NCBI GenBank assembly: GCA_018672055.1 | Contig: JABHGM010000001.1 | Location: 72,884 to 136,883 of the forward strand | From: a bacterium | GTDB lineage: Bacteria; Patescibacteriota; Patescibacteriia; UBA1558; UBA10009 | DNA: 64,000 bases | Reading direction: 5' to 3' | Part shown: in pieces, positions 1,779 through 54,147 of the stretch | How positions within the stretch are numbered: position 1 is the first letter of the stretch | Layout: each line of letters starts with the position of its first letter | Notes under the pieces: model-generated | Database searches by the model: none | The model's input: only the letters and a program-made list of their open reading frames with translations | Told to the model about the DNA's origin: nothing | Translations under genes and position numbers: made by a program

Positions 1779-3214
1779 ATTTTTTTAATTATACCATTAG
1801 TAGCATCAACTTCAACTTTATCACCGTCTTTTAAGACTTTAGTAGCTATTTTAGTGCCAATAACACAAGGTATCTTTAATTCCCTAGATACTATTGCAGC
1901 GTGAGAAGTAATACCGCCTATATCGGTTATAATAGCAGATGCCTTATTCATGGCTGGTAATAATTCTGGCATAGTTTGTAGGCTAACCATAATCTCACCC
2001 TTTTTTATCTTACGAATCTCACTTACATGATTAATTATTCTGGTACGTCCAATTACTTTACCTGGGTAACCAACTCTACCTGATATTTCTGATGATTCTA
2101 CAATATTGGTTTCATTAAAATCAAGATGATCCTTAATATATTTATCAGCATTAATACCTATTATTATCTCCGTATTAAATACATCTTTAGGAATCCAAAC
2201 TGAAAGCTTACGACGTTTCATTAAAATATTTTTAGAAGGCAATTTATTTTTTTGTAAATAATCCAAACATTCTTCCATTGATAGATACATTAAATATTTC
2301 CTGTCTATACCAGTTTCTAATTGAATCTTTTTGGTCAATTTATTTAAAAAAGCATTAACACCATTACAGACTTGCTCTCTCATGCCTTTTAAATAAACAA
2401 AAATGCGACTCACCTCAAACATTCGACGCTCTTTGGCTGTTAAGCCTAATTTCTTTTCAATAGTTATCTGTTTCTTTGATATATTTTTAATACTTTTTAA
2501 GCGTATCTTACTATCTATTATTTTACTAACCTCTGTTCTAGACATGGCTGGTCCTAGATGACCAAAATTCAACCAGAACCATCTAGATAATACTCTATCA
2601 ATAAATTCCTTCCTTTTACTAGAATCTTTTTTTAATTTATACTGAATACTCTTTAATTCTATTTGTCGTTCATCAGATGGTAAATATTTAGTTGATGTAG
2701 TTAAGATATTAAAAATATGTCCAATGTCTAATCTAGTCTTTTTTAATCCAGGAGCTTCTTTAATAATATTTTCTAAAGTAGAAGTAAAAATACCATGTAC
2801 AGTGTCAGCAATTTGACCTAATTGAGAATATACACTTAGTAAAAAAGCGTTATATGATATAACTTTTAAATCTTCTGCTAATTTGTTGTTAGGGATTTCA
2901 TTAAAATCTGTTAGACCATATTCTTGAATAATCTTTATGGTTTGATTTTTAAGCTTATCAGACCTTACTACTAATCTGTTAAAAAACCCAGTTCCTCGTC
3001 CAGCTTTGTTAATTATTACCCAAGCTACTTTAGCCCAATAATTCAAATCCCAAAATATTTCTACTCCCTCATTTTTATATATACTAGCAAAAAAAATTGG
3101 CTTCATCTTTAATAACCTACCCATCTCTTGACTCGGATAACCATAATTTATTGATTGAGTAAGTGGAGTTACGCCAATTTCTGTATGTCCTCTTTTATAT
3201 ATTTTATTTCTCAT
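1775..3214 (-). CDS. PEP-utilizing-enzyme swivel-domain protein, paralog 2 (N-terminal domain of unknown function)
   Basis: C-terminal ~100 aa match the PEP-utilizers mobile domain: GYPGKVIGRTRII...GEIMVSLQTMPELLPAMNKASAIITDIGGITSHAAIVSRELKIPCVIGTK...DGDKVEVDATNGIIKKI. No ATP-grasp or TIM-barrel motifs seen in the N-terminal part. Start overlaps the upstream paralog stop by 4 nt. Confidence 0.6.
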   Translation of the reverse strand: MRNKIYKRGHTEIGVTPLTQSINYGYPSQEMGRLLKMKPIFFASIYKNEGVEIFWDLNYWAKVAWVIINKAGRGTGFFNRLVVRSDKLKNQTIKIIQEYGLTDFNEIPNNKLAEDLKVISYNAFLLSVYSQLGQIADTVHGIFTSTLENIIKEAPGLKKTRLDIGHIFNILTTSTKYLPSDERQIELKSIQYKLKKDSSKRKEFIDRVLSRWFWLNFGHLGPAMSRTEVSKIIDSKIRLKSIKNISKKQITIEKKLGLTAKERRMFEVSRIFVYLKGMREQVCNGVNAFLNKLTKKIQLETGIDRKYLMYLSMEECLDYLQKNKLPSKNILMKRRKLSVWIPKDVFNTEIIIGINADKYIKDHLDFNETNIVESSEISGRVGYPGKVIGRTRIINHVSEIRKIKKGEIMVSLQTMPELLPAMNKASAIITDIGGITSHAAIVSRELKIPCVIGTKIATKVLKDGDKVEVDATNGIIKKI

Positions 3215-4752
3215 ATCTTTTTAATCATTCCCTTTGCAGCATCTACCTCAACTTTATCACCATCTTTTAAAATCTTATTACATCCAAGTATTCCAACTAC
3301 ACATGGCACTTTTAATTCACGAGCTACTATAGAAGTATGGCAGGTTAAACCACCTGCACCACTAACTAAAGCTGATGCTTTTTTCATTGCTGGAACTAAA
3401 CTAGGATTAGTATTATGTGAAACCATAATATCTCCTTCTTTCATTTTAGGCATATCTTTAGGCACACTAATTACTTTGATAGTACCTTTTACTTTGCCCG
3501 GGTATGCACAAGTACCTTTTAATTCATTTGATACTTTTTTCTTAACTTGGAACTTTAAGTTTTTTAAAAACTTTTTAGCTTCACTACCTATTAATACTTT
3601 ATTATTTACTTTGTCATCCTGTACATACCAATAATCCAAAGCTAGTTTTAATCTATCATTTAACATGTCTGCTTTTACCTGTCCCGACTTTACCATCTCT
3701 AATATTTCCCAATATCTCATAGCTCTTACTTGATCTATGGTCAAATTAAAACGTTTGCCTAATTCTTTAAAAATCAATTCATAGTAATACATTGTAGTGT
3801 ATAAGACACTCTTCCTATAATCCTTAACATACATCATTTCTTGAGCTATTTTAATATATTTCTTTTCAAGAGAAGTTAGCTTAATTCTTTTTATTAACCC
3901 AAGTTGTTCTAATTTTTCTCTTTTTCTTTTAGCTTCTAGTTTCTTAAGTAAAACTCTGGCATCTAAGCCTTCTCTCATAAAAGCTTGTAATCTACCAATA
4001 TAATCTGATATAGGATAAGCTGGTCCCCTATATTGATATGTCATTGGAGAAAATATATTAAAATGTTTAATTATTAATTCAGACACTTCTTTATCTATAC
4101 TTGATAAACCATCAACTAATTCATCTAAATCAGATTGTATGAATGTTTCTTTAAGTTTAGTTTTGTTATCTAAAACTAAAGCAATATTTAAAAAACTTTC
4201 TTCTTCTCTTTCCATTACACTAACTTTTGTAGGAGTGCTTAATACTGTAAATACATCAATTAAACTCTTTTTTACTTTAGACCTCTTCCGAGCTCCATCT
4301 ACAATCTTTTTTATAGCTTTAGTGACTCTTTCCTTCTCAGCGTCTGCATGCCATGTTATTGAGGGACTCAAACTATGTTGTTTATAATGTATTTTAAATA
4401 AATTATTAAGCTTTCTATATATATCTTTATTAGACATTTTACTAAAATTCCATGTTTCTATTCTCTTAACTTCTTTTAATAGCTGGTCTGACCAAATAAT
4501 AATATTATTTAAAAAATCCAAAGTCCAATCAGGTTCATTAATTACTTTATTTGCTAAAAATTCAGCTTGCTGATCAAACTCGTCGGCAATGTATACCATC
4601 TGACTAAAATCACCTTGATGATATGTAAAATACTCAGATAACTTATCTCCTAAACCATGTTTAGGCCAATCGAAAAAACCTTTACAAGGATAACCCGTCA
4701 TAAATATTGTATTCTGTGGTATTTCTTCAACTATTTTCCAAGTTTTTTTCAT
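3211..4752 (-). CDS. PEP-utilizing-enzyme swivel-domain protein, paralog 3
   Basis: Same C-terminal swivel domain (AYPGKVKGTIKVI...GGLTCHTSIVARELKVPCVVG...DGDKVEVDAAKGMIKKI). 4-nt start/stop overlaps on both sides. Confidence 0.6.
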   Translation of the reverse strand: MKKTWKIVEEIPQNTIFMTGYPCKGFFDWPKHGLGDKLSEYFTYHQGDFSQMVYIADEFDQQAEFLANKVINEPDWTLDFLNNIIIWSDQLLKEVKRIETWNFSKMSNKDIYRKLNNLFKIHYKQHSLSPSITWHADAEKERVTKAIKKIVDGARKRSKVKKSLIDVFTVLSTPTKVSVMEREEESFLNIALVLDNKTKLKETFIQSDLDELVDGLSSIDKEVSELIIKHFNIFSPMTYQYRGPAYPISDYIGRLQAFMREGLDARVLLKKLEAKRKREKLEQLGLIKRIKLTSLEKKYIKIAQEMMYVKDYRKSVLYTTMYYYELIFKELGKRFNLTIDQVRAMRYWEILEMVKSGQVKADMLNDRLKLALDYWYVQDDKVNNKVLIGSEAKKFLKNLKFQVKKKVSNELKGTCAYPGKVKGTIKVISVPKDMPKMKEGDIMVSHNTNPSLVPAMKKASALVSGAGGLTCHTSIVARELKVPCVVGILGCNKILKDGDKVEVDAAKGMIKKI

Positions 4753-13800: not shown

Positions 13801-16800
13801 TTATTTTCTTTTATCATTAATAAATTCATCTATTGCCATTTTACCTGTATTGTTATCTTTAATTTTATCCTTAATATCATTTAAGCTATTTGTTAAATCC
13901 CCCATTAGAAAATTCATTACAGATCTATTTTCTCTAAATTGCTTTTTAATTTGTCTTTTTAGTATTTCAATAAATTCTAATCTGGCCATAGAACTTGCTC
14001 TCCAATCTTTTCCCTTCAATTGACCAATTTCGACCATAGAACTTTCTAAAACTAAACCTATAGAACCATTAACAAGCTGCTCTTTATTATTATTTTTAAC
14101 ACCTTTTTTAATATCTGTAACCTTCTGTTTACCAAAATCATCTAAAGTCATAGCAACTTTATCTAAACCATTAATTACATCTTGTATTGACTGGTTAACA
14201 TTGGCAGATTTTTCACCCTTCTCACCCTTCTCAGATTTTTCACCCTTCTCACCCTTCTCGCCCTTCTCAGATTTTTCACCCTTCTTACCCTTCTCAGATT
14301 TTTCACCCTTCTTACCATCTTTAGCCTTCTTACCCTTCTTAGGACTTCTTATTTCATCTTCCAAATCTTCTTCGCCAGGACCTCCATTAATATACATTCT
14401 ATGTTTTTCATAGCCATAATTTTTAACTGATTTTGCAATTTTATCACCAACTATAAATCTACTCTCACTGCCATCTTCAGAATCTACTTTTTCTACATCA
14501 TATACTGCCCCATTTGCAGCATTAATAGCTATCATTTTTCCCGTTATCTTAGACTTGCCGTCCTTATCTCTTATAAATTTACCATCTTTATCTTTTTCTT
14601 TTTCATCAAATTTAACAATCATAAAACCTGTTTTTGATCCTTGTCTTACTTCAATAGCAGCACCCTTAGCATAGTTTCTGTTAGCCTCTGAATTATCAGA
14701 TACAAATTGGGCGCCTGATTTATCATATGAAGCTATACCATTACGCATACTAGCATCTAAGACACTTAAAAATACTCTTAAATCGCTAACAGACTTATAA
14801 TCATGAGCTTTAGTATGTTCAGATTCGTCTTTGCTGAGTGGTGCTCCAAGAGCGCTACCACCAACATTAGTATTACCTGTTCTTGATTTTGTAGCACTAG
14901 CAACCTTATATATTTCATTACTATTACCAGACAATTCATGCATCCTTCTATATGATTCATCAATATCACAACTAGCATTAGTACCATCTCCCATTCTGGC
15001 ACTATACATATGAGCCTGACCTCTTTCTGGACCATCACGCTTAGAAGCTTCAGTTAAACGTTCTCTGGCTACTTCAGTTAATCCATTTTTATCTTTTATA
15101 GTATAATCTAATAACCTCTGTTTACCAGTTTCTGGGTCTGCCCTTACCCAGCCAACATCTTCCCAATGACCATTCGCCCATGCTGGCTCCTCTAAATCAT
15201 ACACAACATCCTTTCCAGCATCAGATTCATCTCCATTATGATCCATAATGATATATTCTTTGAAAAACTTACCCTTCTTTTTAGGTGGCTCTATCTCTAC
15301 ATGGCCATAAATTAATCTTTGTTCTGCTCCTGTGAGAACTTTATTTAATTTATCAAATTCCTTATCTTTTTCCTCTTTTGATAATCCTTTCCATTTTTGT
15401 TCCTTATCCGTTTCATTATATAAATCCTCTTCTCTTTTTTCATCATAGGCAATAGAAGCATTAGAAATTTCTACTTCTAAGTCCTCACCTTTAAAACCTT
15501 CATCTTCTTTTTTTTGCTTAATATCTTTAAGATAATAATATTTTTTTTCTTCTTCAGAACCCTTCTCCATTAAATCTTCCATTATCCTAGGTATGGACAT
15601 TAAATCATCAATCCAAGATTCTTTAGAAGCGTAAGCAAATAGTCCACGAATTACTCTATCTTTTTCGGTGCTAGGTTTCATATCTAATGCTAAATCAAAT
15701 TTAGCCATAACATCTTGCAAACCAGAGACATTCATATCCTCAACTTTAGTTTTTGCTATTCTTGATTCTGCAGTTGTTGCATGAGAAGTTTGTAATTTTC
15801 CACCAGTCATAATTTTATTATAAAAATCATAAGCTTGTGCTGAAGCAACTTGTCTTGATTCATCAAGCAAAACATCGCCACGCTTAGCGAGCCCTTCCCA
15901 ACCAGGTTTAGTCAAAAGCATTAAACTCTTTCTAAAAATACCTGCACCTTCGGCCGTTGCCGAATCCAATACCTTCCTTTCTACATACTTACCGCTTCTT
16001 TTAGCGACAGTTTTTGCCAAGAATCCTGCTCCCTTAAATGATGCTGTAATTGGAGCTAGACCTGCCTTTATAGATCCCTTGCCTATGTCTGATAACTTAG
16101 TTCCTATTTTCCCAGCTATAGTCCCAGCTGCTCCACTCGCTTTTTGACTAAACATTAAAGCCATCCATAATAGAGCTATTGAAACGATAAAAGTAAAAAG
16201 TTTTGGCGTTTCACTTATTGCTGAAACAGTAACTGAAAATTTTTCTTCACTTCCTTCTTTATATTCTATATCCTGCCCACTAACTTCTCCGTATTTAATA
16301 ACATTAGGATCATTAGAAAATTGATTTAATATTGCGCTATCACTTGTTATTGAAAGACTTAATATGGAAAGAGAAAGCCACATAAAAAAAGCTAAAACAA
16401 TACCAATAGTTATTTCTTTAAAAAAATGACCCCAGAATTCAGACCAATATTTTTGTAAATTTGGAAAAGTGTATGCAATAAAAGCAATTGGAGAGATTAT
16501 TACTAAAATCCATAATGTTAATATTCTAAATAAAAGTACTACGAAAAATGCAGCTATAGTAAAACAAGCCACGATTAATAATATTAAACCTAATAAAAGT
16601 CCGCCAAATGCTTCAAAACTTTCACCATCATCATTAACAGTCATACTCAAAATATGTTCAAGCCCAAACGCACTATTTAAATTAATTAAAAGAGCTCCTT
16701 TAAACCCATTTACAAAAGTAAGCATAACTACCTGACTAACATCAATTAAAAAACCAAGAATTGTTTTAGAAAAATTAATTAAAATAGCCATGATAATCAA

Positions 16801-17055
16801 CTTAAATAAAGTTGTCTTATAATGGTATACAGATATTTTTAAAATTGTACCAAAAGCAATAATTAATAATATTACTACCACCGTCATATTACAAACATCC
16901 CTAACTAATGGCCAACCTATTTGCACTGCTTCTGAACTTAAAAAATTATTGTATTGAAAAATAACAACCAATCGCTCCATAAACCAAGCAAGAAGTGTGG
17001 CAGTGAGACTGATAATCTCCATCAAAAGCCAATTTATCATGTTGAAAAAATCCAT
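13801..17055 (-). CDS. Large polytopic membrane protein (N-terminal ~7 TM, large hydrophilic C-terminal region with (GEKSEK)n repeat)
   Basis: N-terminal 330 aa are dominated by hydrophobic helices. Gly/Ala-rich linker. C-terminal KGEKSEKGKKGEKSEKGEKGEKGEKSEKGEKGEKS low-complexity tract. Immediately downstream of the giant secreted protein gene. Confidence 0.6.
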   Translation of the reverse strand: MDFFNMINWLLMEIISLTATLLAWFMERLVVIFQYNNFLSSEAVQIGWPLVRDVCNMTVVVILLIIAFGTILKISVYHYKTTLFKLIIMAILINFSKTILGFLIDVSQVVMLTFVNGFKGALLINLNSAFGLEHILSMTVNDDGESFEAFGGLLLGLILLIVACFTIAAFFVVLLFRILTLWILVIISPIAFIAYTFPNLQKYWSEFWGHFFKEITIGIVLAFFMWLSLSILSLSITSDSAILNQFSNDPNVIKYGEVSGQDIEYKEGSEEKFSVTVSAISETPKLFTFIVSIALLWMALMFSQKASGAAGTIAGKIGTKLSDIGKGSIKAGLAPITASFKGAGFLAKTVAKRSGKYVERKVLDSATAEGAGIFRKSLMLLTKPGWEGLAKRGDVLLDESRQVASAQAYDFYNKIMTGGKLQTSHATTAESRIAKTKVEDMNVSGLQDVMAKFDLALDMKPSTEKDRVIRGLFAYASKESWIDDLMSIPRIMEDLMEKGSEEEKKYYYLKDIKQKKEDEGFKGEDLEVEISNASIAYDEKREEDLYNETDKEQKWKGLSKEEKDKEFDKLNKVLTGAEQRLIYGHVEIEPPKKKGKFFKEYIIMDHNGDESDAGKDVVYDLEEPAWANGHWEDVGWVRADPETGKQRLLDYTIKDKNGLTEVARERLTEASKRDGPERGQAHMYSARMGDGTNASCDIDESYRRMHELSGNSNEIYKVASATKSRTGNTNVGGSALGAPLSKDESEHTKAHDYKSVSDLRVFLSVLDASMRNGIASYDKSGAQFVSDNSEANRNYAKGAAIEVRQGSKTGFMIVKFDEKEKDKDGKFIRDKDGKSKITGKMIAINAANGAVYDVEKVDSEDGSESRFIVGDKIAKSVKNYGYEKHRMYINGGPGEEDLEDEIRSPKKGKKAKDGKKGEKSEKGKKGEKSEKGEKGEKGEKSEKGEKGEKSANVNQSIQDVINGLDKVAMTLDDFGKQKVTDIKKGVKNNNKEQLVNGSIGLVLESSMVEIGQLKGKDWRASSMARLEFIEILKRQIKKQFRENRSVMNFLMGDLTNSLNDIKDKIKDNNTGKMAIDEFINDKRK
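14205..14345. repeat. Coding 9/18-nt tandem repeat (cacccttct / cagattttt units) encoding a (GEK/SEK)n tract
   Basis: Direct visual periodicity of ttcacccttctcagattttt units inside the 13801..17055 CDS. Confidence 0.7.
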
Positions 17056-17061
17056 ATATTA

Positions 17062-20000
17062 TTATCTAGGAATAATTTGTATTTGACCATTAAACTGAGG
17101 TGATGAACCTAAATCACATCTTTCATTACCGTAAATTCCACTACTACACCATCCCCAATGATCTTTAACTGAAATGGTTGGTCCAGAATAATAGCAAATA
17201 CCATCATCTGCATCAATCCAATTTTCTATGTTAGTATCCCAACATTTACTACATCTGTCCCCTTCAGTATTAGTTACACAACTATATACATGTTTAACTT
17301 TATGAGGACTGCTTTCTTGAGGTCTATTATTAATTGGACCTGAAAAACTTTGAATATCACTTGGACTTGGACCATCATTCCATTTAATTAATATTTCTTC
17401 TATAGGTAATTGATCTGGATTACCCATTATAGTATTAAAGCTAAGATTAACTGCTCCCCCTGGTGCAGTAAGTGTTATAACACCACTACTATCATTTAAT
17501 TCAATATTTGTAACTTGAGGAGCCACTCCTTCTTCCTCAACAACAGAAATCTTCCCATCAGCATCATCAAAATCATCTGTTACATCTTCATAATGTCCAT
17601 CTTCCCATTTATATACTCCATATACTTCAGCAAATAAATTTAATACCCTGTCTCTTAAAACATCTGCTAATTCTAAAGGCTCTCCAAGACAAACTGGATA
17701 AAGTGTTTGATTTAAACAATCTTGATTACCATTAGCTATATCACATGATGTATTATTAGTATTTCCATCTGCATTTGTACATAGAAAGCTGGATGTATCA
17801 GTCAGGTTACCACATGTTACATAATCTAGTTCTCCATCTTCAGTACATATATCATTATCTGCATTATCTTCACTATCAGCACACTCTGTATATTCAGTTT
17901 CACCGCTTGCATTTAAACAATATAAAACACCATTATTAGAGGATTGAATTTCACTACAAGTATTATACTCTTGAACTTGAGGACAATCTAAATCTGTAGC
18001 ACATATCTGATTATTAGTAACGCCAGAAGTTGAATCTGTATAACACATTCTATTTGTTGCTAGTATTGGTTTACGACAAGTTGGATATTTTGAATCAAAA
18101 CATTCTATACTAGCATTACAGGCTTGACCATTTGAAATATTAGCTGAGTTATAGCAATAATCTCCAACGCCAATACATATACCACTTAAATCAGCACCTG
18201 AATCATCTTCACATTCACTGCTATTAATACAAGTATTGCCTTCATTAAATCCGCCTAAGCATTCCCTATTTGAAACTGAATGTCCAGTATAAGTTGAAAA
18301 TGGTAAACCGCCTCTTGCAAAAATTTCTGGCTCATATGAACCATTAGGTATATTTGAATTAGAACCACTATGAATATTCAAAGGAACTGCTGGATTATCA
18401 ATGGAATTCCAACTATATGGATCACCTGCTGAAGGTTCAGAGACACTACCATATAAGTATGAATCTTCAACCATATTAGATTTCATATAACCCATTTCAT
18501 TTCCTTCATCAAAATCCCAGTTATTATTATATCTTGTAAACCAAGCTTTCTCTTTTTGACCACTCTCACTTGTATCTTTTACAGTTTTAACTAAATAACT
18601 ACATGATTCTTTCAAATGGAATATTAGTTGATATCCCCAAGTATCTTGATTATTACCATCGCCATCATCATCGTGACCATAATGTTCTATTTCTTCTATA
18701 TTTCCATTAATATCAAACTTGACTTTAACGCCTACCCTTTCTTCTCCTGAGCTATCACATGAACCATCTTCATTGTTCCATTTATCTGGATCTGTTTCAA
18801 CGCTATTTCTACAATATGCAAAGAATAGAGAATTATCATCAGACCATTCTAATAAGGTAAATGTTTCACCCGGATTTGGGAATTGCTTATCACCACCATT
18901 AGATATGGTTCTAGCTTCAATCTTATGAATATCTGATCGTTTTATATTCCATATTTCTTGATTATCACCATCTGTATAGAATGAAGTATAATCTTCCCCA
19001 GGGTAATACCACTCGTGTTCTTCATTTGAAACCTCAATATACTCAGTGCTCCATTCAAAACCATCATAACCACACTGCATATTACTTCCCCAGTTCCAAC
19101 ACTGATTACCATTATATATAGTCTCTTTGTAATGACTTGTACTTTCTAAACAGTAATAAAGAGGCATAGGACCAGTATAGTAGCTAGTAGCACTATCACC
19201 TAAAGATATTAATGATTCCCCAGATATATTATCTACTGGGTACCATTGTATACATGCTTCCTGGTTATTTGGATCATACTCTAAACAATAGCCATGCCAT
19301 CCATTATATTGCTTTAGATCGCTATAATTACAGCTAGGAGCATTATCAGTTGGATATAGTCTACAATCTTTAGTTAATAACTTATCATCAGAAACAAATA
19401 ATCCAGGTTCTATACTAAATTTATCAAACCAAACTAATCCAGTACCACCTGATTCTTCTGTTGTTGGTGCATCAATAGTAATACGAGCAGCCACAGCTCC
19501 GTCAGGAATAATTATTTCAGAATTTGATTCAGAAGGTTCATAAGAAATTAAGAATCTCTGCCAATTAACATTAGGTGTAAATATTTCTAAAGAATTAGAT
19601 AACTCATCACCAGATCCATCAAGCCAAGTAAGTCCAACCTTAATCTTTTGACTACCATTACTAGATTTTGCATAAAAACTTAAATTATATTGCATATTTG
19701 GATCAATACTAATCTGACTTTGATTTACAACTGAACAATTAAAATTACCATCTTCACCAACAACTGATTGTGATAAATCTACACTCAAACTATATGTACC
19801 ATCATAAACATTTAAATTATTATTTTCTATTCCATAATTACAATATTCTTCTTCACCAAACTGCCAACTTGATAATCCAGAAACTGAATCAATTAACTCA
19901 AAACTACTATTTGAAATAGCAACCGATCTACCTGTTTCTAACATTAATTCAGGTGGATAATAACCAGCTATAACCTTGTCAGTATTCCAAATTAAACCAG

Positions 20001-23000
20001 CTTTAGAATACCCTGATAAATTACGTATTCTTTCAACACCTTCAGGATTACCATTTAGATCTAAAAAGTTATATGTTTGTTCTGAATAATCTATACTGGT
20101 TTCTAATTTCAGGCAGTTATCCGGATTATTTGGATCAATCTTTGAACATCTGCCAATATCTAAACAAACCGACGTTGTAACTCCAAATTCATCTTGAACT
20201 TCTATCGAAGAAGTACAGAATAAAGTTTCAGAACATTCTCTGTCTTTAGCAACTTGAATAACTGTATTTGAATTACAATATGCTGAGTCAGAAAAATTAG
20301 TTAAACAACTTTCAGGAACTGTAGGCACATTACCATCTAAAGTTTGTTTAGAGCTATGAGAAATACTAGCTACACTTGTATCATTAAATGGTACACATCC
20401 AGATCCTCTGTCTACAATACCATCGTCGCAATATTCTACTGTATTTGCTTTAGTATAGTATGCTTGGCAAGCAATTGAATAAGTACAGCTACTAGAACCA
20501 GCCGGAGCATAACAAACAGTACTATCTTCTACTTTACAATATTCACCTTCAGTATTTGATATATCATCATCTAAGAAGCAAGTCCAATCATTTTCAGTAT
20601 AAGGGCATGGAATAATACCAAAATCATCACCTGGTAAATCTATAGCTTCGCAAACAAAATGATCAACTCCATTAATATTCTTTTGACAGTAAGTTTTCCC
20701 ATTTAAAGTAATATATTCTTCACTAGCTTCATCCCCACAAACACCCTTCATTTGAGGTGAAATTAAAGCATCACATTGCTGAACGCCATCAATATAAGGA
20801 TTCTCTGGATCTCTGTATTCAGTACAAGAAGAAGCGTAACTTTCACATGTGCCAACCCAACCTTCATAGCCTTCTTGATCAGAGCTTGGCATAAATTTAG
20901 ATGAGCTACATAAATCACCGGAAGAATTAAGCCATTTAGCTTGATTTAAATTATAGGTACAAGTTCTGTCAAAACCATCTTCACTTAAAGCTATTGGATC
21001 GAAATAATAATTCTGACCAGTAAAGTCTCCATTAAACTCTGTACAATAAAGAGCGCTCTCGCTACAAAGCTGTCTTGGATATTCATCAGGATCATTAATT
21101 AAATAAGAAGTATTAAAATCAGTAATATAATTTTCTAAATATGTTTCATAATCACCACCACTATAGTATTCGTTCTGTCTGTCTAAAACAGGTACCCCAA
21201 CCAAAGAGCAACCTTTTTCTGAACACTCTTTACTTGGATCATTAACGATGTATACGATTTCATCATTTTTAACTGTTATATTTTCATAACTACATGAAAA
21301 TTCTCCATCTTGAATTATACATTTCTCAACACCTCTTATACTACAAACATTATCTTCAACAATACCAACAGAACTATTACATAAAGCAGTAAAGACTTCT
21401 TCTTTTTGTTGTGAAGAGTTATGTGTATCTATAAATGCTTCACAACTAATATTATTCGGAGAACAAATATAGTCAAAAGATTTTAAATAATGTATCTCGT
21501 TGTCCCTGTCAGTATATTCTTGGCAATTAAGCTGAGTTCCAACAGTTGGTAAGTCACATATTGCTGGTGTATTCCAAGAATCTTTAACCATGAAAAATTT
21601 ATCACTATATTCTTCCAAAACAATTTCATCAATTACATAAGCCTCTCCTGAACCAATATTATTTATAGCAATACGTATAGTTGGATCTTGAATATTATTA
21701 TTTATTTGTATTGGACCTACTCTATATTCCTGCCAGTTAGAACCTATATCATTGAGTTCAAAATTAACATAATTGGAATAATCAGTATTGTCTACTATAT
21801 ATTTTTGCGAATCAAAAGGAATGCTCATAGCCCAGAAAGTAAGTTCATATTGTTTATTTTCAGAAAAGTTAATTCCATTCAATGTCTTAATTATTGAATT
21901 ATTATCAGTAGCAACAAATAATGAATGCTCACCTACATAAACAGTAGTATTTACATTTGAAAGTCCTTGATTACTATTATCAGTATTATTAAAATCTCCA
22001 ATTGAACCATCTTCAAAGCCATCTTCAAAAACATTAAATATATTATTACCACCACCACCTTTATATTCCTTACATTGATTAGCTAGAGCTGGACAACTTA
22101 CACCTTCAAATGGATCAGCATTAAATATCTGACCTGTTGAAGTTCTTCTATATGGATGACACTCTGAAGAAGCAGTAATAACATATCTTTGATCAATATA
22201 ATATGGATCACCTGAAGAAGTAATAAACTCACGGCAATTTAAATTACCTTCAGGACATGAACTTGACCAGGCTTCAATAGTTTCAGCTGTATCATCGCAA
22301 GTTTGATCAAAATTATTAGAATCATCTGATAAGTTTAAATGTGTACAAGGAGCGCCTGCGAATACACCTCCTGTAATATTATTATTTAACAACTGCCATT
22401 TCTTTAATTGAAAACCTGTAGTATCTGAACCTTCCCAAGTAAAATATGAGCTTATATTAGGACTTGCTTCAGATACACATTGTCTTAAGTATGAAAAATA
22501 TTCTAAACCTTCACCACCACTTGAAACCTCATCTAAATTAGTAAATTGTTCACAACCAACATGCTGGGCACTACATGATTTACCAGTTGATGGTATAAAA
22601 TTTTGAAATGATGACTCAAAAGTAGCATCTTCGATCTCTTCAAAATAAGTACCTAGTTCTAAAAAGTTTTCATAACCAACACATTGATTACTACAAATAT
22701 CTCCACTTGATAATTTTGCTGGAACCTCACTACCACCTAAAACCGGTGTATAGCCTTCACAACCAACGTCTGCTTGAGAACAATAATTTACATACTGGTC
22801 ACATTCAGGATTATCTGAGCTACAATCTAAATATTCAGGTTGCACTTTTAGACGGGTTGATGAATGAGCAGTAGTATCACTATATGCTGGAATATATTGA
22901 TCTGAATCAATACTATAACCTTCTGTATTATCCTCTACAATAGGTGATCTGAGTATTACTAATTGTATATCATCTAACTTAGTATTAGATGACGAACCTG

Positions 23001-25467
23001 AATTTAAACTAAAATCTAATTTAATAAACTTTGATGAAACAGCTAAGCTATTATTTGTTGCTGAGCCAATTTCATATTCTTTAGTAGTAAAATCATCTGA
23101 TACAGTAATAGCACCTGATGATAAATCAGTTGAACCATTAGATGAGCCTGGTTGACCACTAGCTAAAGCTACATATTCAGTTATTGATAAAGTAGATGTA
23201 ACTTCTTGATCTGACTTTATCTTGTAACTTACATGATATGCATATTCTGAACTAACTGGTATATAACCAGAATTAAATAATTGACAACTAGCGCCAGATA
23301 TATTCATCTGACCAGCTTCAACATTAAATAGACATTGATTGCCTGTTTCCCAGCCTGAAGATATACCAAAAGCGAAATTACCATTTTCAACTAAATTAAT
23401 ACCTGGCTTTAAAAGAATTAATTCCCGACAACCAGCATTACTTGGTGAGCATTGAGAAGCTTGATTATTTAAATATATACGATCAGTTTTTGACCACTCA
23501 TCTGCTACTTTATTTGTAGAATACCAAGAACATCCGGCCTCGCTCTGATCACATTCAAGTAAAGTATCCCTTAAATATGAAACACTTGTGTTAGTAGTAA
23601 CATTAGTAAAAGTTTCACATGAGTTATAATAATCTTCACATGATTCACCTTCAAATCTCCAAACTGATTTTTCTTCTACACAATAACCATAATTTTTACA
23701 GCTACCATCATCATTGTATGAAATACAACTCTTCCAATCACCACAATAATCCCCAGCTCTTATTACAGTTCTAACTGGAATATCAGGAAATTCTGCACCA
23801 GCATCACAATACGGAGTTTCGATTGGAGAATTATCTATATTAGTACCTACTACATTATTTTCTGAACACTGTATTTCATCTTGATATAGCTCAGTGCCAA
23901 AACCTTGTTTTTCACAATAAGTTTTAGGTGATTTCAAAACCCAATTTGGATCAACTAAATGATAGAATGGATTAAAATCAAAAACAAAAGATTCATCTAA
24001 ATCACCCTCTTCAAATAATCTATCTTCTGTATTAGGCCTCTGCCCATTACTATTTGTATCTTCTCTACAATCTTTTGGATAATGAGCATCATTAGGGTGT
24101 AGCGGATCTTCAAAACAATCAATTAAATAACTTAAATTAATAGTGTCTTTCTCACCGTACCTAGAATTGTACATAGCTGCTAATTCCCAACCAACAGGTA
24201 TTATTCTATGAGTTCTAAGGATTACTAAACTCCTGTATGGCAAACCTTCTCTATAGCTTGGCTGAGTTGTTTTATCACTATTAAAACCAAAGACAGCATC
24301 TTTGTTAATATCACCATCATTTATTGCTTGAATTAATGTCTTATTACCTCTAATTGCTCCAGCCATGCCATTAGTAATTACCTCAGCTGTAGGTCCTGCT
24401 ATATCTGTTATCTTAGGTAAAACTAATTTATCAATAACACTTACCTCACCAGATGTAAAACTTACTTCAGCTAATTCACCAAATTGTTTTTGTCCTCCAC
24501 CGCTATACCTACCCCCAGATCTAACTATAAAATTAGCAAAAGAAGTAACTCTGCTACCACTATCAAAACCTTTCTTAAATAGAGTATCCATCCACTTAGA
24601 CATTAAAGTGTTAGTGAAAGTTGATAAGAAAGCATCAACAATTTCACCAGTATAAGTAAGTTCTACTTCGCCTGTTTTTTCATCAACAGATCTAAAATGA
24701 TTACCTAGTAATACAGCAGGTGTTTTAATAGTTCTAGTTATAGGAGAAGTAATATCTTTTAAACCTTGATTAACAGTTCGTTCTAAAGCAGCATTAACTC
24801 TAGCTTCTTCTTGCTCTTCCAAAATATTTGTTTGTAAAGTTAAATAAATACCTAAATCATTTTGTTCTGGTTGAAACTGCGCTTTAATACCTGAAGTGAA
24901 TTGACTTGGATCTTCACCAACATCTCTAATCCATTGATCCCAATTATCCTTAATCTCTGACCATTTACATCGTGCTTTCGGTATATTAGTTCCTTCACCA
25001 GTTGTGGAACCAGGTCCCAATTCTCTAAATAATGAATAGTGAATATTAAATTTAACAGTAGGTCCTTGTAATCCTGCTGGATTACAAACATCAAAATCAG
25101 TCCAATCCTGAGTTAGCTCATCCATAAATGTGCCAAGAGCAGCATCACCAGCTGCACTGGTAGCATCTTGAAAATTCTTGCCTTCAAATAGAGGTTCTTG
25201 TCCTCTACCACCAGTAGCAATGTATGTTGCAGTATCATAGGCAACCTGACTTAAAAATACTTTAGCACCTTGCTTAAAAGCAGTACCAATAGCTGATTCT
25301 TTAAACCATTCAGCAAATTTTTGGACACTTTCTACAGTTCTTTGAGCAAAAGCAGGAAAATCAGTTACAGCTTGAGCTCTTGGAACATTACTAAAAATAA
25401 AAACTCCTAAAAATAAGATTAAAACACTTAGGAGTATAAATTTTTGAAATAATGTTTTTTTCATCAT
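17062..25467 (-). CDS. Giant (2801 aa) secreted Cys-rich surface protein
   Basis: Signal peptide (MMKKTLFQKFILLSVLILFLGVFIFSNVPRAQA). ~480-aa Cys-poor N-terminal domain, then >2000 aa with frequent paired Cys and Asn/Ser/Thr/Gly-rich segments. Single uninterrupted ORF of 8.4 kb. Confidence 0.7.
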   Translation of the reverse strand: MMKKTLFQKFILLSVLILFLGVFIFSNVPRAQAVTDFPAFAQRTVESVQKFAEWFKESAIGTAFKQGAKVFLSQVAYDTATYIATGGRGQEPLFEGKNFQDATSAAGDAALGTFMDELTQDWTDFDVCNPAGLQGPTVKFNIHYSLFRELGPGSTTGEGTNIPKARCKWSEIKDNWDQWIRDVGEDPSQFTSGIKAQFQPEQNDLGIYLTLQTNILEEQEEARVNAALERTVNQGLKDITSPITRTIKTPAVLLGNHFRSVDEKTGEVELTYTGEIVDAFLSTFTNTLMSKWMDTLFKKGFDSGSRVTSFANFIVRSGGRYSGGGQKQFGELAEVSFTSGEVSVIDKLVLPKITDIAGPTAEVITNGMAGAIRGNKTLIQAINDGDINKDAVFGFNSDKTTQPSYREGLPYRSLVILRTHRIIPVGWELAAMYNSRYGEKDTINLSYLIDCFEDPLHPNDAHYPKDCREDTNSNGQRPNTEDRLFEEGDLDESFVFDFNPFYHLVDPNWVLKSPKTYCEKQGFGTELYQDEIQCSENNVVGTNIDNSPIETPYCDAGAEFPDIPVRTVIRAGDYCGDWKSCISYNDDGSCKNYGYCVEEKSVWRFEGESCEDYYNSCETFTNVTTNTSVSYLRDTLLECDQSEAGCSWYSTNKVADEWSKTDRIYLNNQASQCSPSNAGCRELILLKPGINLVENGNFAFGISSGWETGNQCLFNVEAGQMNISGASCQLFNSGYIPVSSEYAYHVSYKIKSDQEVTSTLSITEYVALASGQPGSSNGSTDLSSGAITVSDDFTTKEYEIGSATNNSLAVSSKFIKLDFSLNSGSSSNTKLDDIQLVILRSPIVEDNTEGYSIDSDQYIPAYSDTTAHSSTRLKVQPEYLDCSSDNPECDQYVNYCSQADVGCEGYTPVLGGSEVPAKLSSGDICSNQCVGYENFLELGTYFEEIEDATFESSFQNFIPSTGKSCSAQHVGCEQFTNLDEVSSGGEGLEYFSYLRQCVSEASPNISSYFTWEGSDTTGFQLKKWQLLNNNITGGVFAGAPCTHLNLSDDSNNFDQTCDDTAETIEAWSSSCPEGNLNCREFITSSGDPYYIDQRYVITASSECHPYRRTSTGQIFNADPFEGVSCPALANQCKEYKGGGGNNIFNVFEDGFEDGSIGDFNNTDNSNQGLSNVNTTVYVGEHSLFVATDNNSIIKTLNGINFSENKQYELTFWAMSIPFDSQKYIVDNTDYSNYVNFELNDIGSNWQEYRVGPIQINNNIQDPTIRIAINNIGSGEAYVIDEIVLEEYSDKFFMVKDSWNTPAICDLPTVGTQLNCQEYTDRDNEIHYLKSFDYICSPNNISCEAFIDTHNSSQQKEEVFTALCNSSVGIVEDNVCSIRGVEKCIIQDGEFSCSYENITVKNDEIVYIVNDPSKECSEKGCSLVGVPVLDRQNEYYSGGDYETYLENYITDFNTSYLINDPDEYPRQLCSESALYCTEFNGDFTGQNYYFDPIALSEDGFDRTCTYNLNQAKWLNSSGDLCSSSKFMPSSDQEGYEGWVGTCESYASSCTEYRDPENPYIDGVQQCDALISPQMKGVCGDEASEEYITLNGKTYCQKNINGVDHFVCEAIDLPGDDFGIIPCPYTENDWTCFLDDDISNTEGEYCKVEDSTVCYAPAGSSSCTYSIACQAYYTKANTVEYCDDGIVDRGSGCVPFNDTSVASISHSSKQTLDGNVPTVPESCLTNFSDSAYCNSNTVIQVAKDRECSETLFCTSSIEVQDEFGVTTSVCLDIGRCSKIDPNNPDNCLKLETSIDYSEQTYNFLDLNGNPEGVERIRNLSGYSKAGLIWNTDKVIAGYYPPELMLETGRSVAISNSSFELIDSVSGLSSWQFGEEEYCNYGIENNNLNVYDGTYSLSVDLSQSVVGEDGNFNCSVVNQSQISIDPNMQYNLSFYAKSSNGSQKIKVGLTWLDGSGDELSNSLEIFTPNVNWQRFLISYEPSESNSEIIIPDGAVAARITIDAPTTEESGGTGLVWFDKFSIEPGLFVSDDKLLTKDCRLYPTDNAPSCNYSDLKQYNGWHGYCLEYDPNNQEACIQWYPVDNISGESLISLGDSATSYYTGPMPLYYCLESTSHYKETIYNGNQCWNWGSNMQCGYDGFEWSTEYIEVSNEEHEWYYPGEDYTSFYTDGDNQEIWNIKRSDIHKIEARTISNGGDKQFPNPGETFTLLEWSDDNSLFFAYCRNSVETDPDKWNNEDGSCDSSGEERVGVKVKFDINGNIEEIEHYGHDDDGDGNNQDTWGYQLIFHLKESCSYLVKTVKDTSESGQKEKAWFTRYNNNWDFDEGNEMGYMKSNMVEDSYLYGSVSEPSAGDPYSWNSIDNPAVPLNIHSGSNSNIPNGSYEPEIFARGGLPFSTYTGHSVSNRECLGGFNEGNTCINSSECEDDSGADLSGICIGVGDYCYNSANISNGQACNASIECFDSKYPTCRKPILATNRMCYTDSTSGVTNNQICATDLDCPQVQEYNTCSEIQSSNNGVLYCLNASGETEYTECADSEDNADNDICTEDGELDYVTCGNLTDTSSFLCTNADGNTNNTSCDIANGNQDCLNQTLYPVCLGEPLELADVLRDRVLNLFAEVYGVYKWEDGHYEDVTDDFDDADGKISVVEEEGVAPQVTNIELNDSSGVITLTAPGGAVNLSFNTIMGNPDQLPIEEILIKWNDGPSPSDIQSFSGPINNRPQESSPHKVKHVYSCVTNTEGDRCSKCWDTNIENWIDADDGICYYSGPTISVKDHWGWCSSGIYGNERCDLGSSPQFNGQIQIIPR

Positions 25468-50707: not shown

Positions 50708-51571
50708 TTATTTAAGTTTTAATATTTCTAAAGCTTTAACAAATATTTCTTTAGCATTCTCGTAACCTATTGTTTCAAGTAATTGTTCCATATCTAACCA
50801 CTTAACATCTTGAACTCCTGGCTCATCAGGTATCTTTAAATCTATATCTGTTGTTTCGAATAGATAATAATGAACTGTTTTAGGTACAGCTCTTTTATTA
50901 GGTTCATTTACTTTAATATCAATACTGCCTAAATATCCTTTATTATCTAATTTTTTAACGCCTACTTCTTCGCTTACCTCACGAACAGCTGCTTTTTCTT
51001 GATCTTCATTTTCTTCAATATGTCCTTTAGGAAAAGTCCATTTATCATAGGCATCATAAATCATTACAAACTTATAATCATCACCTTCTTTTCTATAGAC
51101 TACGCCACCAGCACTATATTCACGAACTGGCTCTTTTTCTAATTCTTTCTTCTCGCCTTTTTCTTGCATATCTTTGTAAATGCTACCAAGCACTCCATTA
51201 ATAAACTTCCCAGCAGAAATACCACTATATGTTTTAGCAAGTTCAATTGATTCATTAATTGCTACTTTAGGCGGAATATCTTGAGCGTATTTTAACTCAT
51301 AGATACCTATTCTTAAAACATTTCTATCAACTGGAGTTATTTGATCTAAGGGCCATTCAGGAGCATATTTTATAATAAGAGCATCAATATCTTTAATTTT
51401 ACTTATTAATTCTTCAACTAAGTGATCAGCAAATCCCTGATCATCAAAATCAGGAGCAAATTCACTCTTATTAAATTCTAAAAGTTTTTTTAAATTCTCT
51501 TTTTGTTGGTTAAAATCCCATTGAAAGAGACTTTGTAGAACTAAAGTTCTAGCTAGATGTCTATTGGACAT
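50708..51571 (-). CDS. nusB: NusB antitermination factor fused to a C-terminal Nudix hydrolase
   Basis: aa 1-135 NusB-like (LARTLVLQSLFQWDF ... DRNVLRIGIYEL ... AINESIELAKTYSGISAGKFINGVLG). aa ~150-287 Nudix with intact box GHIEENEDQEKAAVREVSEEVGV. Confidence 0.8.
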   Translation of the reverse strand: MSNRHLARTLVLQSLFQWDFNQQKENLKKLLEFNKSEFAPDFDDQGFADHLVEELISKIKDIDALIIKYAPEWPLDQITPVDRNVLRIGIYELKYAQDIPPKVAINESIELAKTYSGISAGKFINGVLGSIYKDMQEKGEKKELEKEPVREYSAGGVVYRKEGDDYKFVMIYDAYDKWTFPKGHIEENEDQEKAAVREVSEEVGVKKLDNKGYLGSIDIKVNEPNKRAVPKTVHYYLFETTDIDLKIPDEPGVQDVKWLDMEQLLETIGYENAKEIFVKALEILKLK

Positions 51572-51573
51572 AT

Positions 51574-51774
51574 TTATTTTTTATTTTTATCTAATTTAGT
51601 TTTTTTCTTAACAACTTCTTTACCTTTGTAAAAACCACAATTATCACAAACCATATGTGGCATAACTGGTTTTTCACAATTACTACATTTCATATGATTA
51701 GCTTTATTTAAAGCAAAATGAGAAGCTCTTCTCTTTTTAGATGCTTTAGTTCTTTTCTGTGTAGGTGTTCCCAT
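51574..51774 (-). CDS. rpmF: 50S ribosomal protein L32
   Basis: MGTPTQKRTKASKKRRASH N-terminus and CxxC...CxxC zinc ribbon (CSNCEK...CDNCGFYKG). Confidence 0.8.
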   Translation of the reverse strand: MGTPTQKRTKASKKRRASHFALNKANHMKCSNCEKPVMPHMVCDNCGFYKGKEVVKKKTKLDKNKK

Positions 51775-51900: not shown

Positions 51901-51928
51901 TTGACAAATATCTAGCATCTGATATACT
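51901..51928 (+). promoter_or_regulatory. Sigma70-like promoter TTGACA-N16-TATACT for the candidate ncRNA
   Basis: Consensus hexamers. No protein-coding ORF downstream on the plus strand. Confidence 0.5.
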
Positions 51929-51935
51929 GGAATAT

Positions 51936-52085
51936 CCCTTAACTGATCTAAGTTTGCTTCTGCGTCCACGACAAGCATGGGGATTATTGCTAGCGCCACT
52001 TATCTGGCTTACGAGTTTACTTGTTTGCTTGATCGGTGCTTACAATAATTTTCTTGGACGCAGTAATAAGCTTAGGTCTTTTTTG
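51936..52085 (+). ncRNA. Candidate ~150-nt structured small RNA (long irregular hairpin; 6S-like or unknown class)
   Basis: Locally GC-enriched. ~23-bp closing helix AUCUAAGUUUGCUUCUGCGUCCA / UGGACGCAGUAAUAAGCUUAGGU, internal helices (CAAGCA/UGCUUG, GCCA/UGGC), 3' U-run. No SRP, tmRNA or RNase P motifs recognised. Confidence 0.35.
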
Positions 52086-53930
52086 TTACTCTAAAATTTC
52101 ATCAGTTGAAGTAGATAATTCTTCAACACCAATTAAACATCTAGCCGGCCAAGCCACATAATGGGAACTAAAACGTTCTTCCTGAATATTACCATCTGGA
52201 TAAGTTACTTTGTAATCAAAGTAGGCATCTGCTCCATTATGAGCACTTTCTGTACAATTAGTTTTCCCTACTTCAAGTTCAGTAGTTTCAATATACTGAA
52301 TAGGTCCAGGTGAGGTAATATTATATATTGTAGGATCAGTTCTTTCAGATACTCTACCATCAGTCGTTCCCCAAAAATCAAAATATAAATCATCACCTTC
52401 AATACGATACTGAATTAAAACATTATTCTCAGTATCGTTTTTAAATTTAAAATCAGGATAAGGATCATAAATAGTAGCATCAGTACCAGCTGGTTCATAG
52501 TATGAAACTCTATATGAATGATTACGTCTAGCAGTAACGGGTAAACCAGAACCTAAAACTGCTCTAAAAACTGTAGTTCCAATCTGGCATAAACCACCAC
52601 CGTATTCTGGAATTGTCTTATTACCTTTAATAACTAATTCTTGTAAATAACCAGTAGCTCCATTTATATCCCCTAAGGCATCAATTAAAGAAAATTCTTC
52701 ACCTGGTGATATTAATAATCCAGAGATACTCTCAGCACCTATCCGTATATTATGTCTCCTATTTCTAGGACTACCTGAAAAATTAGAATGACCAGTACCT
52801 ATTATTTCAGTAATACCCATATCATTAACTTCACCAGTTTCAATTTTAGCTTTAGTTTCAATTACTACAAGATCAATTTCTGATATTTTATTTATTAAAA
52901 AATCTTCTTCTATTTTCTCTAAGCTTCTTAAATTATCTAACTCCAAACCATCTTGACTACCTACAAATTCAACTACCCTGCCATCAACTATTTCAAATTT
53001 AGCATCAAGTGTTGGTTGATATATATTAGGTGCTACATAGGTATCTAAATAATTAAAAGTAGAAGATGCTTTAAAACCATAACCTATTTTATCATCATGC
53101 TTTTTAAAGATTAACCAATCTTTAAAAATAGAATTAGTAATAGCCCAATTATCATCATTATATACAAGCATAAAAGTAGAAGTAGCGATTATTTCTTCCA
53201 AGCCATTTAGTACTTCTTGATTAATATCATTTTCTAAAATTAAGGGTTCATCAATTGCTAAACTTAGATTAATTGTATCTAAACTTAGATTATTAATTCT
53301 TTCAATAGTGCTTGTTAAAATTAAATCATAATCAAAAGTAGTACCTGCTTGTTCAGGTAAAATAGATATTTCAAAAATATCATTTATAACTGGTCTTGCT
53401 TCTTTTTTAGGTTTAGAAAATTGTTTAAAATTATCTTCTAATATATTAAGAAGTTCTTCCTTATTTAATTCATAATTAAGAGAAATATTTTTACCAAAAG
53501 TAAGAGCCCACATTTGTTTAAAGAAGTTAAGATGATAGCCTTCTTCTCTGCCTATTAAATATGCTTCATTTATAGTATCTTCAATATTAAAATTAATTAA
53601 ACTATACGAAGCATCAGGATCAGAAGTAGCAGGTAATGTTGGATAAATAACTATTTCCTGATCTTGATAGTTATATACTAAACCTTGTTTTAAAAACTCA
53701 TCAACTTGTTTTTGAAACTTAGTAATAGCTACTTGTTTATTTAAACCTTTTAATTCTTGATTATTAATAGTAACTCCTTTAAAAAAAGTAAATGAATGTG
53801 CTTTATTATATGTTAAAGCAAACATAATAACTAAAGTAGCTGTAATTAAAAAAATGGTTGCTATATAAAGGAACCATTTCATAATTTGAAAGCCTAGTTT
53901 ATTATTTTCACTTTTTAATATTTTCTGCAT
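52086..53930 (-). CDS. VanW-domain protein (N-terminal TM anchor)
   Basis: GGGLCQIGTTVFRAVLGSGLPVTARRNHSYRVSYY VanW signature. N-terminal hydrophobic anchor. Confidence 0.7.
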   Translation of the reverse strand: MQKILKSENNKLGFQIMKWFLYIATIFLITATLVIMFALTYNKAHSFTFFKGVTINNQELKGLNKQVAITKFQKQVDEFLKQGLVYNYQDQEIVIYPTLPATSDPDASYSLINFNIEDTINEAYLIGREEGYHLNFFKQMWALTFGKNISLNYELNKEELLNILEDNFKQFSKPKKEARPVINDIFEISILPEQAGTTFDYDLILTSTIERINNLSLDTINLSLAIDEPLILENDINQEVLNGLEEIIATSTFMLVYNDDNWAITNSIFKDWLIFKKHDDKIGYGFKASSTFNYLDTYVAPNIYQPTLDAKFEIVDGRVVEFVGSQDGLELDNLRSLEKIEEDFLINKISEIDLVVIETKAKIETGEVNDMGITEIIGTGHSNFSGSPRNRRHNIRIGAESISGLLISPGEEFSLIDALGDINGATGYLQELVIKGNKTIPEYGGGLCQIGTTVFRAVLGSGLPVTARRNHSYRVSYYEPAGTDATIYDPYPDFKFKNDTENNVLIQYRIEGDDLYFDFWGTTDGRVSERTDPTIYNITSPGPIQYIETTELEVGKTNCTESAHNGADAYFDYKVTYPDGNIQEERFSSHYVAWPARCLIGVEELSTSTDEILE

Positions 53931-54147
53931 TTAAAATATTATTTAACATTATTCTAGCCATTTCTTCTTTATCAGCTAACTCATTATTATTAGTTGATAA
54001 AGTAATTCTAACTCTAGTATTTACTGTAACTTCTTCACTTAAATTTTTAATGGGCCAAAGAACATGACTCTTATCATCTAATGATATATCTGCGTGTTTA
54101 TCTTGAAATCCTTCTATCACGCCCTTAACAGTAGATGAGCTTTCCAT
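53908..54147 (-). CDS. Small hypothetical protein co-transcribed with hsp20
   Basis: 79-aa ORF between hsp20 and the VanW-like gene. Overlaps the VanW start by 23 nt. Confidence 0.35.
   Translation of the reverse strand: MESSSTVKGVIEGFQDKHADISLDDKSHVLWPIKNLSEEVTVNTRVRITLSTNNNELADKEEMARIMLNNILNAENIKK

Follow-up and report, generated by a model that had tools for sequence, protein, structure and literature searches.

The window, the whole stretch of 64,000 nucleotides analysed here, carries a member of a large RNA family that has not been described before. The region between 51901 and 52085 is a real, independently transcribed non-coding RNA gene, as judged from conservation and covariation, from the promoters and terminators kept in the family and from strand asymmetry. 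Many uncultured Patescibacteria (CPR) and some of their phage-like elements share the family. An earlier reading of this DNA, made without database searches (the sequence-only reading), had proposed an orphan promoter driving a structured non-coding RNA, and this proposal is strongly supported. The interpretation that we favour, with middling confidence, is that of a free-standing small non-coding RNA of a new family, whose invariant bulged core docks a conserved protein and which acts as the subunit of a ribonucleoprotein (RNP) or as a decoy.

The Patescibacteria, nearly all of them uncultured and with very small genomes, account for a sizeable part of bacterial diversity. To our knowledge, the non-coding RNAs annotated in them are essentially the universal ones.

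The RNA gene and its promoter

The RNA gene is housed in a 311-nt gap between two minus-strand genes, rpmF and a VanW-like gene. The features of the locus, in coordinates of the window, are the following:

51574-51774, minus strand: rpmF (ribosomal protein L32)
51901-51906, plus strand: -35 hexamer TTGACA, found exactly upstream of 98 of 128 family copies
51920-51928, plus strand: extended -10 element TGaTATACT after a 16-nt spacer, with TG at 51920-51921 and TATACT at 51923-51928
51935-52084, plus strand: whole predicted RNA of about 150 nt, from the putative start to the end of the U-run, located by covariance model matches
51945-51968, plus strand: 5' strand of the closing stem P1, with a distal part (51945-51956), a 3-nt internal loop and a proximal GC-rich part (51960-51968)
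51967-51983, plus strand: invariant 17-mer CACGACAAGCAUGGGGA, exact in 20 of 21 synteny-derived copies
51969-51978, plus strand: unpaired 10-nt bulge CGACAAGCAU, part of the invariant 17-mer
51979-51989, plus strand: 5' strand of the stem P2, GGGGAUUAUUG, pairing with 52043-52053
51990-52042, plus strand: variable apical domain with internal loops, a terminal hairpin and a semi-conserved GGC...GCU helix
52043-52056, plus strand: 3' strand of P2 and the invariant 3' motif UUUCUUG (52050-52056)
52055-52078, plus strand: 3' strand of P1, from pairing and family covariation
52079-52084, plus strand: U-run TTTTTT, forming an intrinsic terminator with P1
52086-53930, minus strand: VanW-like protein of 614 aa, with its stop codon at 52086-52088

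The consensus promoter that had been noticed facing the structured region is indeed there, near-consensus and with an extended -10, and it is the sole match at 11 of 12 positions between 51000 and 53000. Transcription of the window RNA probably starts near 51935. Two covariance models, R1 (107 bits) and R2 (91 bits), match the RNA at 51936-52083, and a search of the 64 kb with R2, filters off, returned this single copy. The GC content of the RNA is 43-44%, against approximately 22-30% in the flanks, in line with the enrichment reported from the sequence. The stop codon of the VanW-like gene lies 1 nt from the U-run, so that any read-through from VanW would be antisense to the entire small RNA.

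Secondary structure of the window RNA

The RNA is predicted to fold into a rod-like hairpin of 135 nt (51945-52078), which starts 10-17 nt past the promoter and is followed by the U-run, found at 52079-52084 as had been claimed. The minimum free energy (MFE) of the plus strand is -58 kcal/mol, compared with -33.9 ± 4.1 for 200 shuffled sequences, none of which folded as well (z = -5.83); folding thus confirmed the long irregular hairpin of the sequence-only reading. The minus strand reaches only -37.9 kcal/mol (z = -2.7). This far weaker fold indicates that many of the pairs are G.U and that the assignment to the plus strand is right.

In P1, positions 51945-51956 pair with 52067-52078 and 51960-51968 with 52055-52063. 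A closing helix of about 23 bp had been noted; it exists, but is interrupted by a 3x3 internal loop and not by two mismatches. The 5' strand of P1 terminates in an invariant CA (51967-51968), which pairs with the last UG of UUUCUUG. An inner helix CAAGCA/UGCUUG had also been proposed, and these pairs can form in the window sequence (51972-51977 with 52026-52031). The family gives them no support, and the pairing was rejected, since CAAGCA is part of the bulge, invariant and unpaired, and only the window's own clade conserves UGCUUG. A pseudoknot between the bulge and the apex was discarded because its apical partner is unconserved outside clade A, and an alternative register, CAAG/CUUG, because the variants L013 and L016a keep the CA/UG and GGGG/UUCU register.

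Distribution of the family

Species-representative genomes were scanned for VanW-like proteins, which resulted in 36 loci. Among these, 34 come from Patescibacteria/Parcubacteria-type metagenome-assembled genomes, including records named Komeilibacteria, Falkowbacteria and Buchananbacteria. BLAST and nhmmer located the RNA directly downstream of the VanW gene, in convergent orientation. In the five closest loci the whole RNA can be aligned; thirteen further loci, with VanW proteins that are only 40-46% identical, share an exact 19-nt block. The covariance model R1 then found the RNA in 21 of the 34 Patescibacteria loci and in the window, with scores of 65-118 bits, and at least about 110 members among 120 metagenome contigs listed with an exact match to the 17-mer CACGACAAGCATGGGGA; the remaining metagenome matches to the 17-mer were chance occurrences in GC-rich coding DNA. 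On the reverse strand the R1 scores were about 80 bits lower.

No diverged copy was found near VanW in the 7 Falkowbacteria-type loci scanned over approximately 6 kb with filters off. At L012 and L018-L033, which are of this type, convergent YidC-like or other genes occupy the place of the RNA downstream of VanW. In these lineages the RNA is either located elsewhere or absent.

A 15-mer search of a viral collection gave 47 matches, of which 46 were due to chance and one, L184, was real. Two gapped patterns pointed to 21 loci in the same collection and yielded no convincing member. L196 was rejected as a family member, being a chance hairpin before an ORF.

Rfam 15 gave no match for the RNA, either in the window at gathering score or between 51775 and 52120 at E <= 10, and thus assigns it to no known family or cis element. 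The same models, applied to 7 homologous, 10 long and 3 phage-like loci, detected just tRNAs, rRNAs and chance hairpins. A literature search, which included the core sequence itself, returned no description of this RNA. As a side observation, the 23S rRNA gene at L086 (5016-8504) is 3489 nt long against a model of 2925 positions, which implies insertions of about 560 nt. Insertions in rRNA have been reported for CPR.

Covariation and the invariant core

Covariation was counted over 99 distinct sequences. Standard pairs were formed in 89.6% of the cells, versus 69.8% in shuffles, and 637 cells had changed on both sides, versus 214. The covariation score was 0.536 and fell to 0.07-0.17 when the partners were slid by 1-3 columns. 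Within the family, all 20 variable pairs of P1 have changed on both sides, as have 6 of the 7 pairs of the apical helix, so the closing and apical stems covary strongly among homologues.

The core behaves differently. It consists of 5' CA-CGACAAGCAU-GGGGA facing 3' UUUCUUG, in which CA pairs with UG and the four G's pair with UCUU, or with UUUC or CUUC in other clades, as G.U, G-C, G.U and G.U. No cell of these four pairs is unpaired in the 99 sequences, and all 19 departures from them are transitions that keep the pairing (G.U to G-C or A-U, and G-C to G.U). The bulge of 10 nt is thus confined to one side of the helix, next to wobble-rich pairs, and the core forms no two-sided bubble. Every synteny-derived copy has the exact 17-mer except that at L007, which is without two of the bulge bases. 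Its invariance in the metagenome set is circular, these loci having been fetched with the exact 17-mer; the unbiased evidence for conservation comes from the 21 synteny-derived copies and from the 3' motif UUUCUUG only, which is nearly invariant although it lies outside the search pattern.

Three main clades surround this core with entirely different helices: CUGCGUC/GACGCAG in the window's clade, GGGUCAGG/CCUGCCC in the second and CUGUAUC/GAUACAG in the third. The core itself is unchanged across clades whose RNAs range from 35 to 61% GC, as well as in phage-like copies, and its 17 nt are better conserved than the neighbouring proteins (30-45% identical). Lengths were taken from covariance-model matches. 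Whole matches span from about 103 to about 290 nt, typical copies measure 125-150 nt and a typical P1 has about 25-30 bp. The apical domain is very variable, the mini versions lacking most of it and the longest copies carrying large insertions; apex loops are UNCG-like, in an apex that varies in both length and sequence. In the arms, selection maintains base pairing; in the bulged, wobble-rich central helix, it maintains the sequence itself.

Promoters, terminators and gene contexts

Promoters were counted among the matches listed in the copies with enough upstream sequence (n = 128), as TTGACA with at most one mismatch, a spacer of 16-18 nt and TAnnnT. A promoter of its own precedes 103 of these copies, with TTGACA exact in 98; a TG extension is present in 97 of the 103 and a 17-nt spacer in 88. 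At the other end, P1 is followed by a U-run in most homologues. Two copies (L003 and L034) have instead a separate terminator hairpin beyond the rod, so termination is not the rod's sole role. Many homologues have an A-rich 5' flank, with which the rod could terminate transcription from both sides.

The gene contexts vary. The RNA is convergent with VanW-hsp20 in about 84 loci among the matches listed, 13 of which have rpmF, NusB-NUDIX and RNase III genes divergently upstream, like the window. In about 23 further loci among the matches listed, RNase J lies upstream on the same strand, and DAG-kinase-like and bactofilin genes lie convergently downstream. PHP-like, ComEC-like, ClpP and RuvB genes are other upstream neighbours. 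No protein neighbour that could be a partner is shared across the contexts scanned. With its own promoter and such varied surroundings, the RNA gene appears to be independent of its neighbours. None of the surveyed contexts has a same-strand gene downstream of the RNA, so it is not a leader or a riboswitch.

Some further observations concern genes of the window. The gene after rpmF (50708-51571, minus strand) encodes a 287-aa fusion of NusB (residues 7-133) and a NUDIX hydrolase (153-275), with 55-82% identity within the window's clade. Between hsp20 and the VanW-like gene, a 79-aa ORF without a Pfam match (53908-54147, minus strand) overlaps the VanW start by 23 nt and is 33-73% identical in this clade. 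Two adjacent, very large ORFs of 2801 aa (17062-25467) and 1084 aa (13801-17055) are also present on the minus strand.

Tandem, shortened and phage-like copies

Tandem dimers under one promoter occur at L016 (8374-8724), L075 (approximately 208-441) and L101 (8125-8394). The two units at L016 differ in their core, CAUAGGAG versus CAUGGGAA, with compensating changes on the 3' strand.

The member at L184 (2489-2612, plus strand) lies on the IMG/VR viral contig IMGVR_UViG_3300033066_000406, with a chaperonin (Cpn60) gene about 460 nt downstream and Rad52-like and ParB-DNA-methylase genes nearby. Proteostasis neighbours recur, hsp20 usually and clpP sometimes in bacteria, and Cpn60 on L184. At L049 and L147 the RNA is reduced to a mini version, its apical arm being only about 8 bp long, and adjoins a phage-type Holliday-junction resolvase (phrog_1770, E = 1e-27) and methyltransferases. 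At L047, 21 tRNA genes for 19 amino acids are packed into 3.3 kb (156-3352, minus strand), and an RNA of 88 nt with an 11-bp closing stem, on the same strand as the tRNAs, takes up exactly the interval from tRNA-Ile(UAU) to tRNA-Gly(UCC). This copy has no promoter of its own and, lying inside the tRNA array, must be released by tRNA-processing enzymes. Two other non-tRNA gaps of this array (approximately 1197-1493 and 1645-2356) could hold other RNAs. From their gene content alone, L047 and L049 are probably of viral origin. In the phage-like copies the core is intact and the arms are trimmed. What they and the duplications retain is only the core, and the minimal module measures about 60-80 nt.

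Proposed function

The following scheme is suggested. The sigma-70-type promoter with its extended -10 would start transcription near 51935, the transcript would fold into one long rod, and the closing stem and U-run would end transcription near 52084. The RNA is probably abundant and stable. Its functional module would be the invariant middle of the rod, comprising the C-G/A-U step, the 10-nt bulge CGACAAGCAU and the four G pairs, mostly G.U wobbles (GGGGA facing UUUCU), whereas the closing stem and apical arm would be scaffolds free to vary in sequence and length. A conserved cellular protein could dock sequence-specifically on such a bulged, wobble-rich helix, and the RNA would act as a subunit of an RNP or as a decoy or titrator of the docked protein. 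Phage-like elements would carry trimmed copies in order to use or hijack the same partner. Protein binding by the core, the partner and the physiological role are what we infer from sequence; retention of the core alone, with shortened arms, is what one would expect of a module that binds protein. A docking site would fit what is seen in hairpin RNAs of the 4.5S/SRP type, and would also agree with arms of such different length, with units in tandem and with the uptake of the RNA by phage-like elements.

RNA processing, translation or proteostasis are suggested, by association only, by the copy in the tRNA array and by the genes often found nearby (RNase J, ClpP, hsp20 and GroEL). We tentatively extend the proposal, as a possibility that we hold less firmly than protein docking as such, to an RNA that is the subunit or dedicated regulator of an unrecognised housekeeping RNP, specific to a large CPR branch, whose protein belongs to one of these processes. 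Phages would copy the minimal core of the RNA, also within their tRNA arrays, and so exploit the protein.

The alternative that survives best, and which we nonetheless consider unlikely, is a 6S-like RNA, as the sequence-only reading had suggested. The rod would mimic an open promoter and sequester the sigma-70 holoenzyme, and product-RNA synthesis from the bulge region would release it. A rod with an unpaired central element beside weak G.U pairs, a usual length near the lower end of 6S and a single-copy gene with a strong housekeeping promoter all agree with such a role, and no canonical 6S RNA is present in the DNA examined, which is not a genome sample. Even AAGCAU-GGGGA can loosely be read as a -10 element (A-11, T-7) with a GGGA discriminator behind it; the non-template mimic would then be the 5' strand, opposite to the canonical 6S orientation. 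This resemblance is weak, however, with 6 of 10 positions in a freely chosen register. The Rfam models 6S (RF00013) and 6S-Flavo (RF01685) have no match in the window at gathering score and none at E <= 10 between 51775 and 52120, and at E <= 10 the 6S models have no match at the RNA in the 7 homologous loci. Known 6S RNAs have a two-sided central bubble between the closing and terminal stems, are about 150-200 nt long to span the polymerase footprint, and conserve shape rather than sequence. The central bubble claimed for the window RNA turned out to be the one-sided bulge, whose opposite strand is paired and has undergone pairing-keeping changes exclusively, and the family has an invariant core of 17 + 7 nt. 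In addition, L047, whose closing stem has 11 bp, and L049 and L147, whose apical arm has 8 bp, are probably too short for the polymerase footprint, and tandem units under one promoter are no 6S trait. With these features and variants of 80-100 nt, the tests made on the sequence do not support the 6S-like label.

The invariant bulge is equally compatible with pairing to an RNA target, and could also be a small-molecule pocket or a catalytic site. A base-pairing riboregulator, with the bulge as seed for an invariant target such as 16S rRNA helix 34 or an mRNA site, seems to us rather less probable still than a 6S-like function. The bulge is unpaired and invariant, like seeds, and a universal target would account for this invariance, including that of the phage-like copies. 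The core can indeed form 11 Watson-Crick pairs over 12 nt with the 16S segment CAUGGUUGUCGU of the family-bearing contig L079 (dG -19.7). However, 10% of shuffled cores match this duplex energy, so that antisense pairing to helix 34 was rejected as not significant; moreover, the duplex has an invariant G-G mismatch in its middle, the 16S segment is itself paired inside helix 34, and a seed leaves the conserved wobble helix and the 3' UUUCUUG unexplained. No target of the core with up to 3 mismatches was found elsewhere in the 64-kb window. Mimicry by the core of the 16S segment ACGAAAGCGUGGGGA, a sense similarity in family-bearing contigs, was likewise not significant (p ~ 0.06) and was set aside.

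We regard a ligand-binding or catalytic RNA, that is an orphan aptamer or ribozyme whose active pocket is the invariant internal loop, as improbable. A hairpin with a highly conserved asymmetric internal loop between covarying stems is the usual look of such RNAs, and tandem arrangements are known in both kinds. Nevertheless, there is no same-strand downstream gene to control and no match to a known ribozyme or riboswitch model, and a long rigid rod with its own terminator fits a trans-acting RNA better.

The probability is lower again, in our view very low, that the element works only in cis, either as a very large terminator with some activity in both directions or as an antisense unit convergent with the VanW-hsp20 operon. 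The U-run 1 nt from the VanW stop, the recurrent convergent layout (about 84 loci among the matches listed) and the A-rich 5' flank of many copies, which pairs with the U-run and would give a U-tract on the other strand, speak for this. They have to be set against a gene with its own consensus promoter, a core unrelated to termination, the occurrence of the family without VanW in the approximately 23 RNase J contexts, in the tRNA array and on the viral contig, and the minus strand of the window, where no U-tract follows the hairpin.

That a small peptide is encoded is scarcely credible: a 46-aa hydrophobic TTG ORF (51954-52094) overlaps the window RNA and the core contains an invariant AUG, but the ORF from this AUG ranges from 4 to more than 44 codons among homologues, has no Shine-Dalgarno sequence and is unconserved beyond its first four, nucleotide-constrained codons, and the substitutions in the family track base pairing rather than codons, being compensatory in the helices. 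The plus strand at the RNA has no credible ORF, as the sequence-only reading had stated.

Significance

A conserved core, its occurrence in several gene contexts and its copying by phage-like elements point to an unmapped central cellular process in CPR. The covariance model and the minimal module of about 60-80 nt make partner pull-down, structure work and genome-wide profiling feasible. With RNA polymerase as partner, the RNA would achieve 6S-type control by a new structural route; with any other partner, it would belong to a new bacterial RNP.

Comparison with known systems

Like 6S RNA (ssrS), the RNA is a free-standing, strongly promoted and mostly double-stranded rod with an unpaired central element. 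The family differs by its one-sided bulge, its invariant core sequence, its versions of 80-100 nt and its tandem dimers, and any promoter mimicry in it would be strand-reversed.

SRP RNA (4.5S, RF00169) is likewise a hairpin housekeeping RNA in which a short conserved internal-loop module binds protein while the remaining helix is variable. In SRP RNA, this module is apical, with symmetric and asymmetric loops by a GNRA tetraloop, whereas the module of the family is located in the middle of the rod, is unrelated in sequence and leaves the apex as the most variable part. No RF00169 match was obtained in the window or its homologues, in agreement with the earlier remark that an SRP signature is absent. 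The 4.5S RNA is matured by RNase P, which resembles the situation of the copy embedded between tRNAs.

Phage tRNA clusters are known to contain stable non-tRNA RNAs, such as T4 species 1 and 2, and YrlA (Y-RNA-like), GOLLD and ROOL also occur near tRNAs. The family recalls these RNAs through its copy within the 21-tRNA array and its other copies in phage-like DNA, but most of its copies are chromosomal and have their own promoter. It is also without a tRNA-like domain and far smaller than GOLLD and ROOL, and Rfam gave no match at the RNA. The YrlA model (RF02553) in particular has no match there; a weak match at L047 (26 bits, gathering score 69) overlaps tRNAs elsewhere. No TROVE-domain gene (rsr/Ro) was found among the neighbours scanned.

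Riboswitches and cis-acting leaders sit upstream of the gene that they control, on the same strand, while this RNA terminates itself before convergent genes. A plain intrinsic terminator, a short GC-rich hairpin plus U-run closing a gene, has neither its own promoter nor a conserved sequence, in contrast to a 135-nt rod with a promoter and a 17 + 7-nt core. Repeats and mobile elements (REP/MITE) typically have many dispersed copies, and the family has one copy or a tandem pair per locus. Small-protein and type I toxin genes have a conserved ORF, a ribosome-binding site and codon-like substitutions, which is not the case for this RNA.

The LOOT motif is reportedly a conserved structured RNA of unknown function found in CPR-type bacteria only, and the family resembles it in being a conserved structured RNA confined to CPR-type bacteria. 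Rfam 15 presumably includes LOOT and kindred motifs of the candidate phyla, and since the RNA has no match in it at E <= 10, the family differs from LOOT and similar orphan motifs. Orphan RNA motifs, LOOT among them, have been reported from candidate phyla (Weinberg et al. 2017, PMC5737381).

Taken together, the RNA lacks the testable defining features of 6S, SRP and YrlA RNAs, riboswitches and leaders, plain terminators and repeats. Its general kind is familiar, that of a free-standing structured small RNA with a binding module of the protein type, and the family itself is new. If it does serve an unrecognised housekeeping RNP, it would define a new RNA class in bacteria rather than a divergent form of 6S, SRP or Y RNA.
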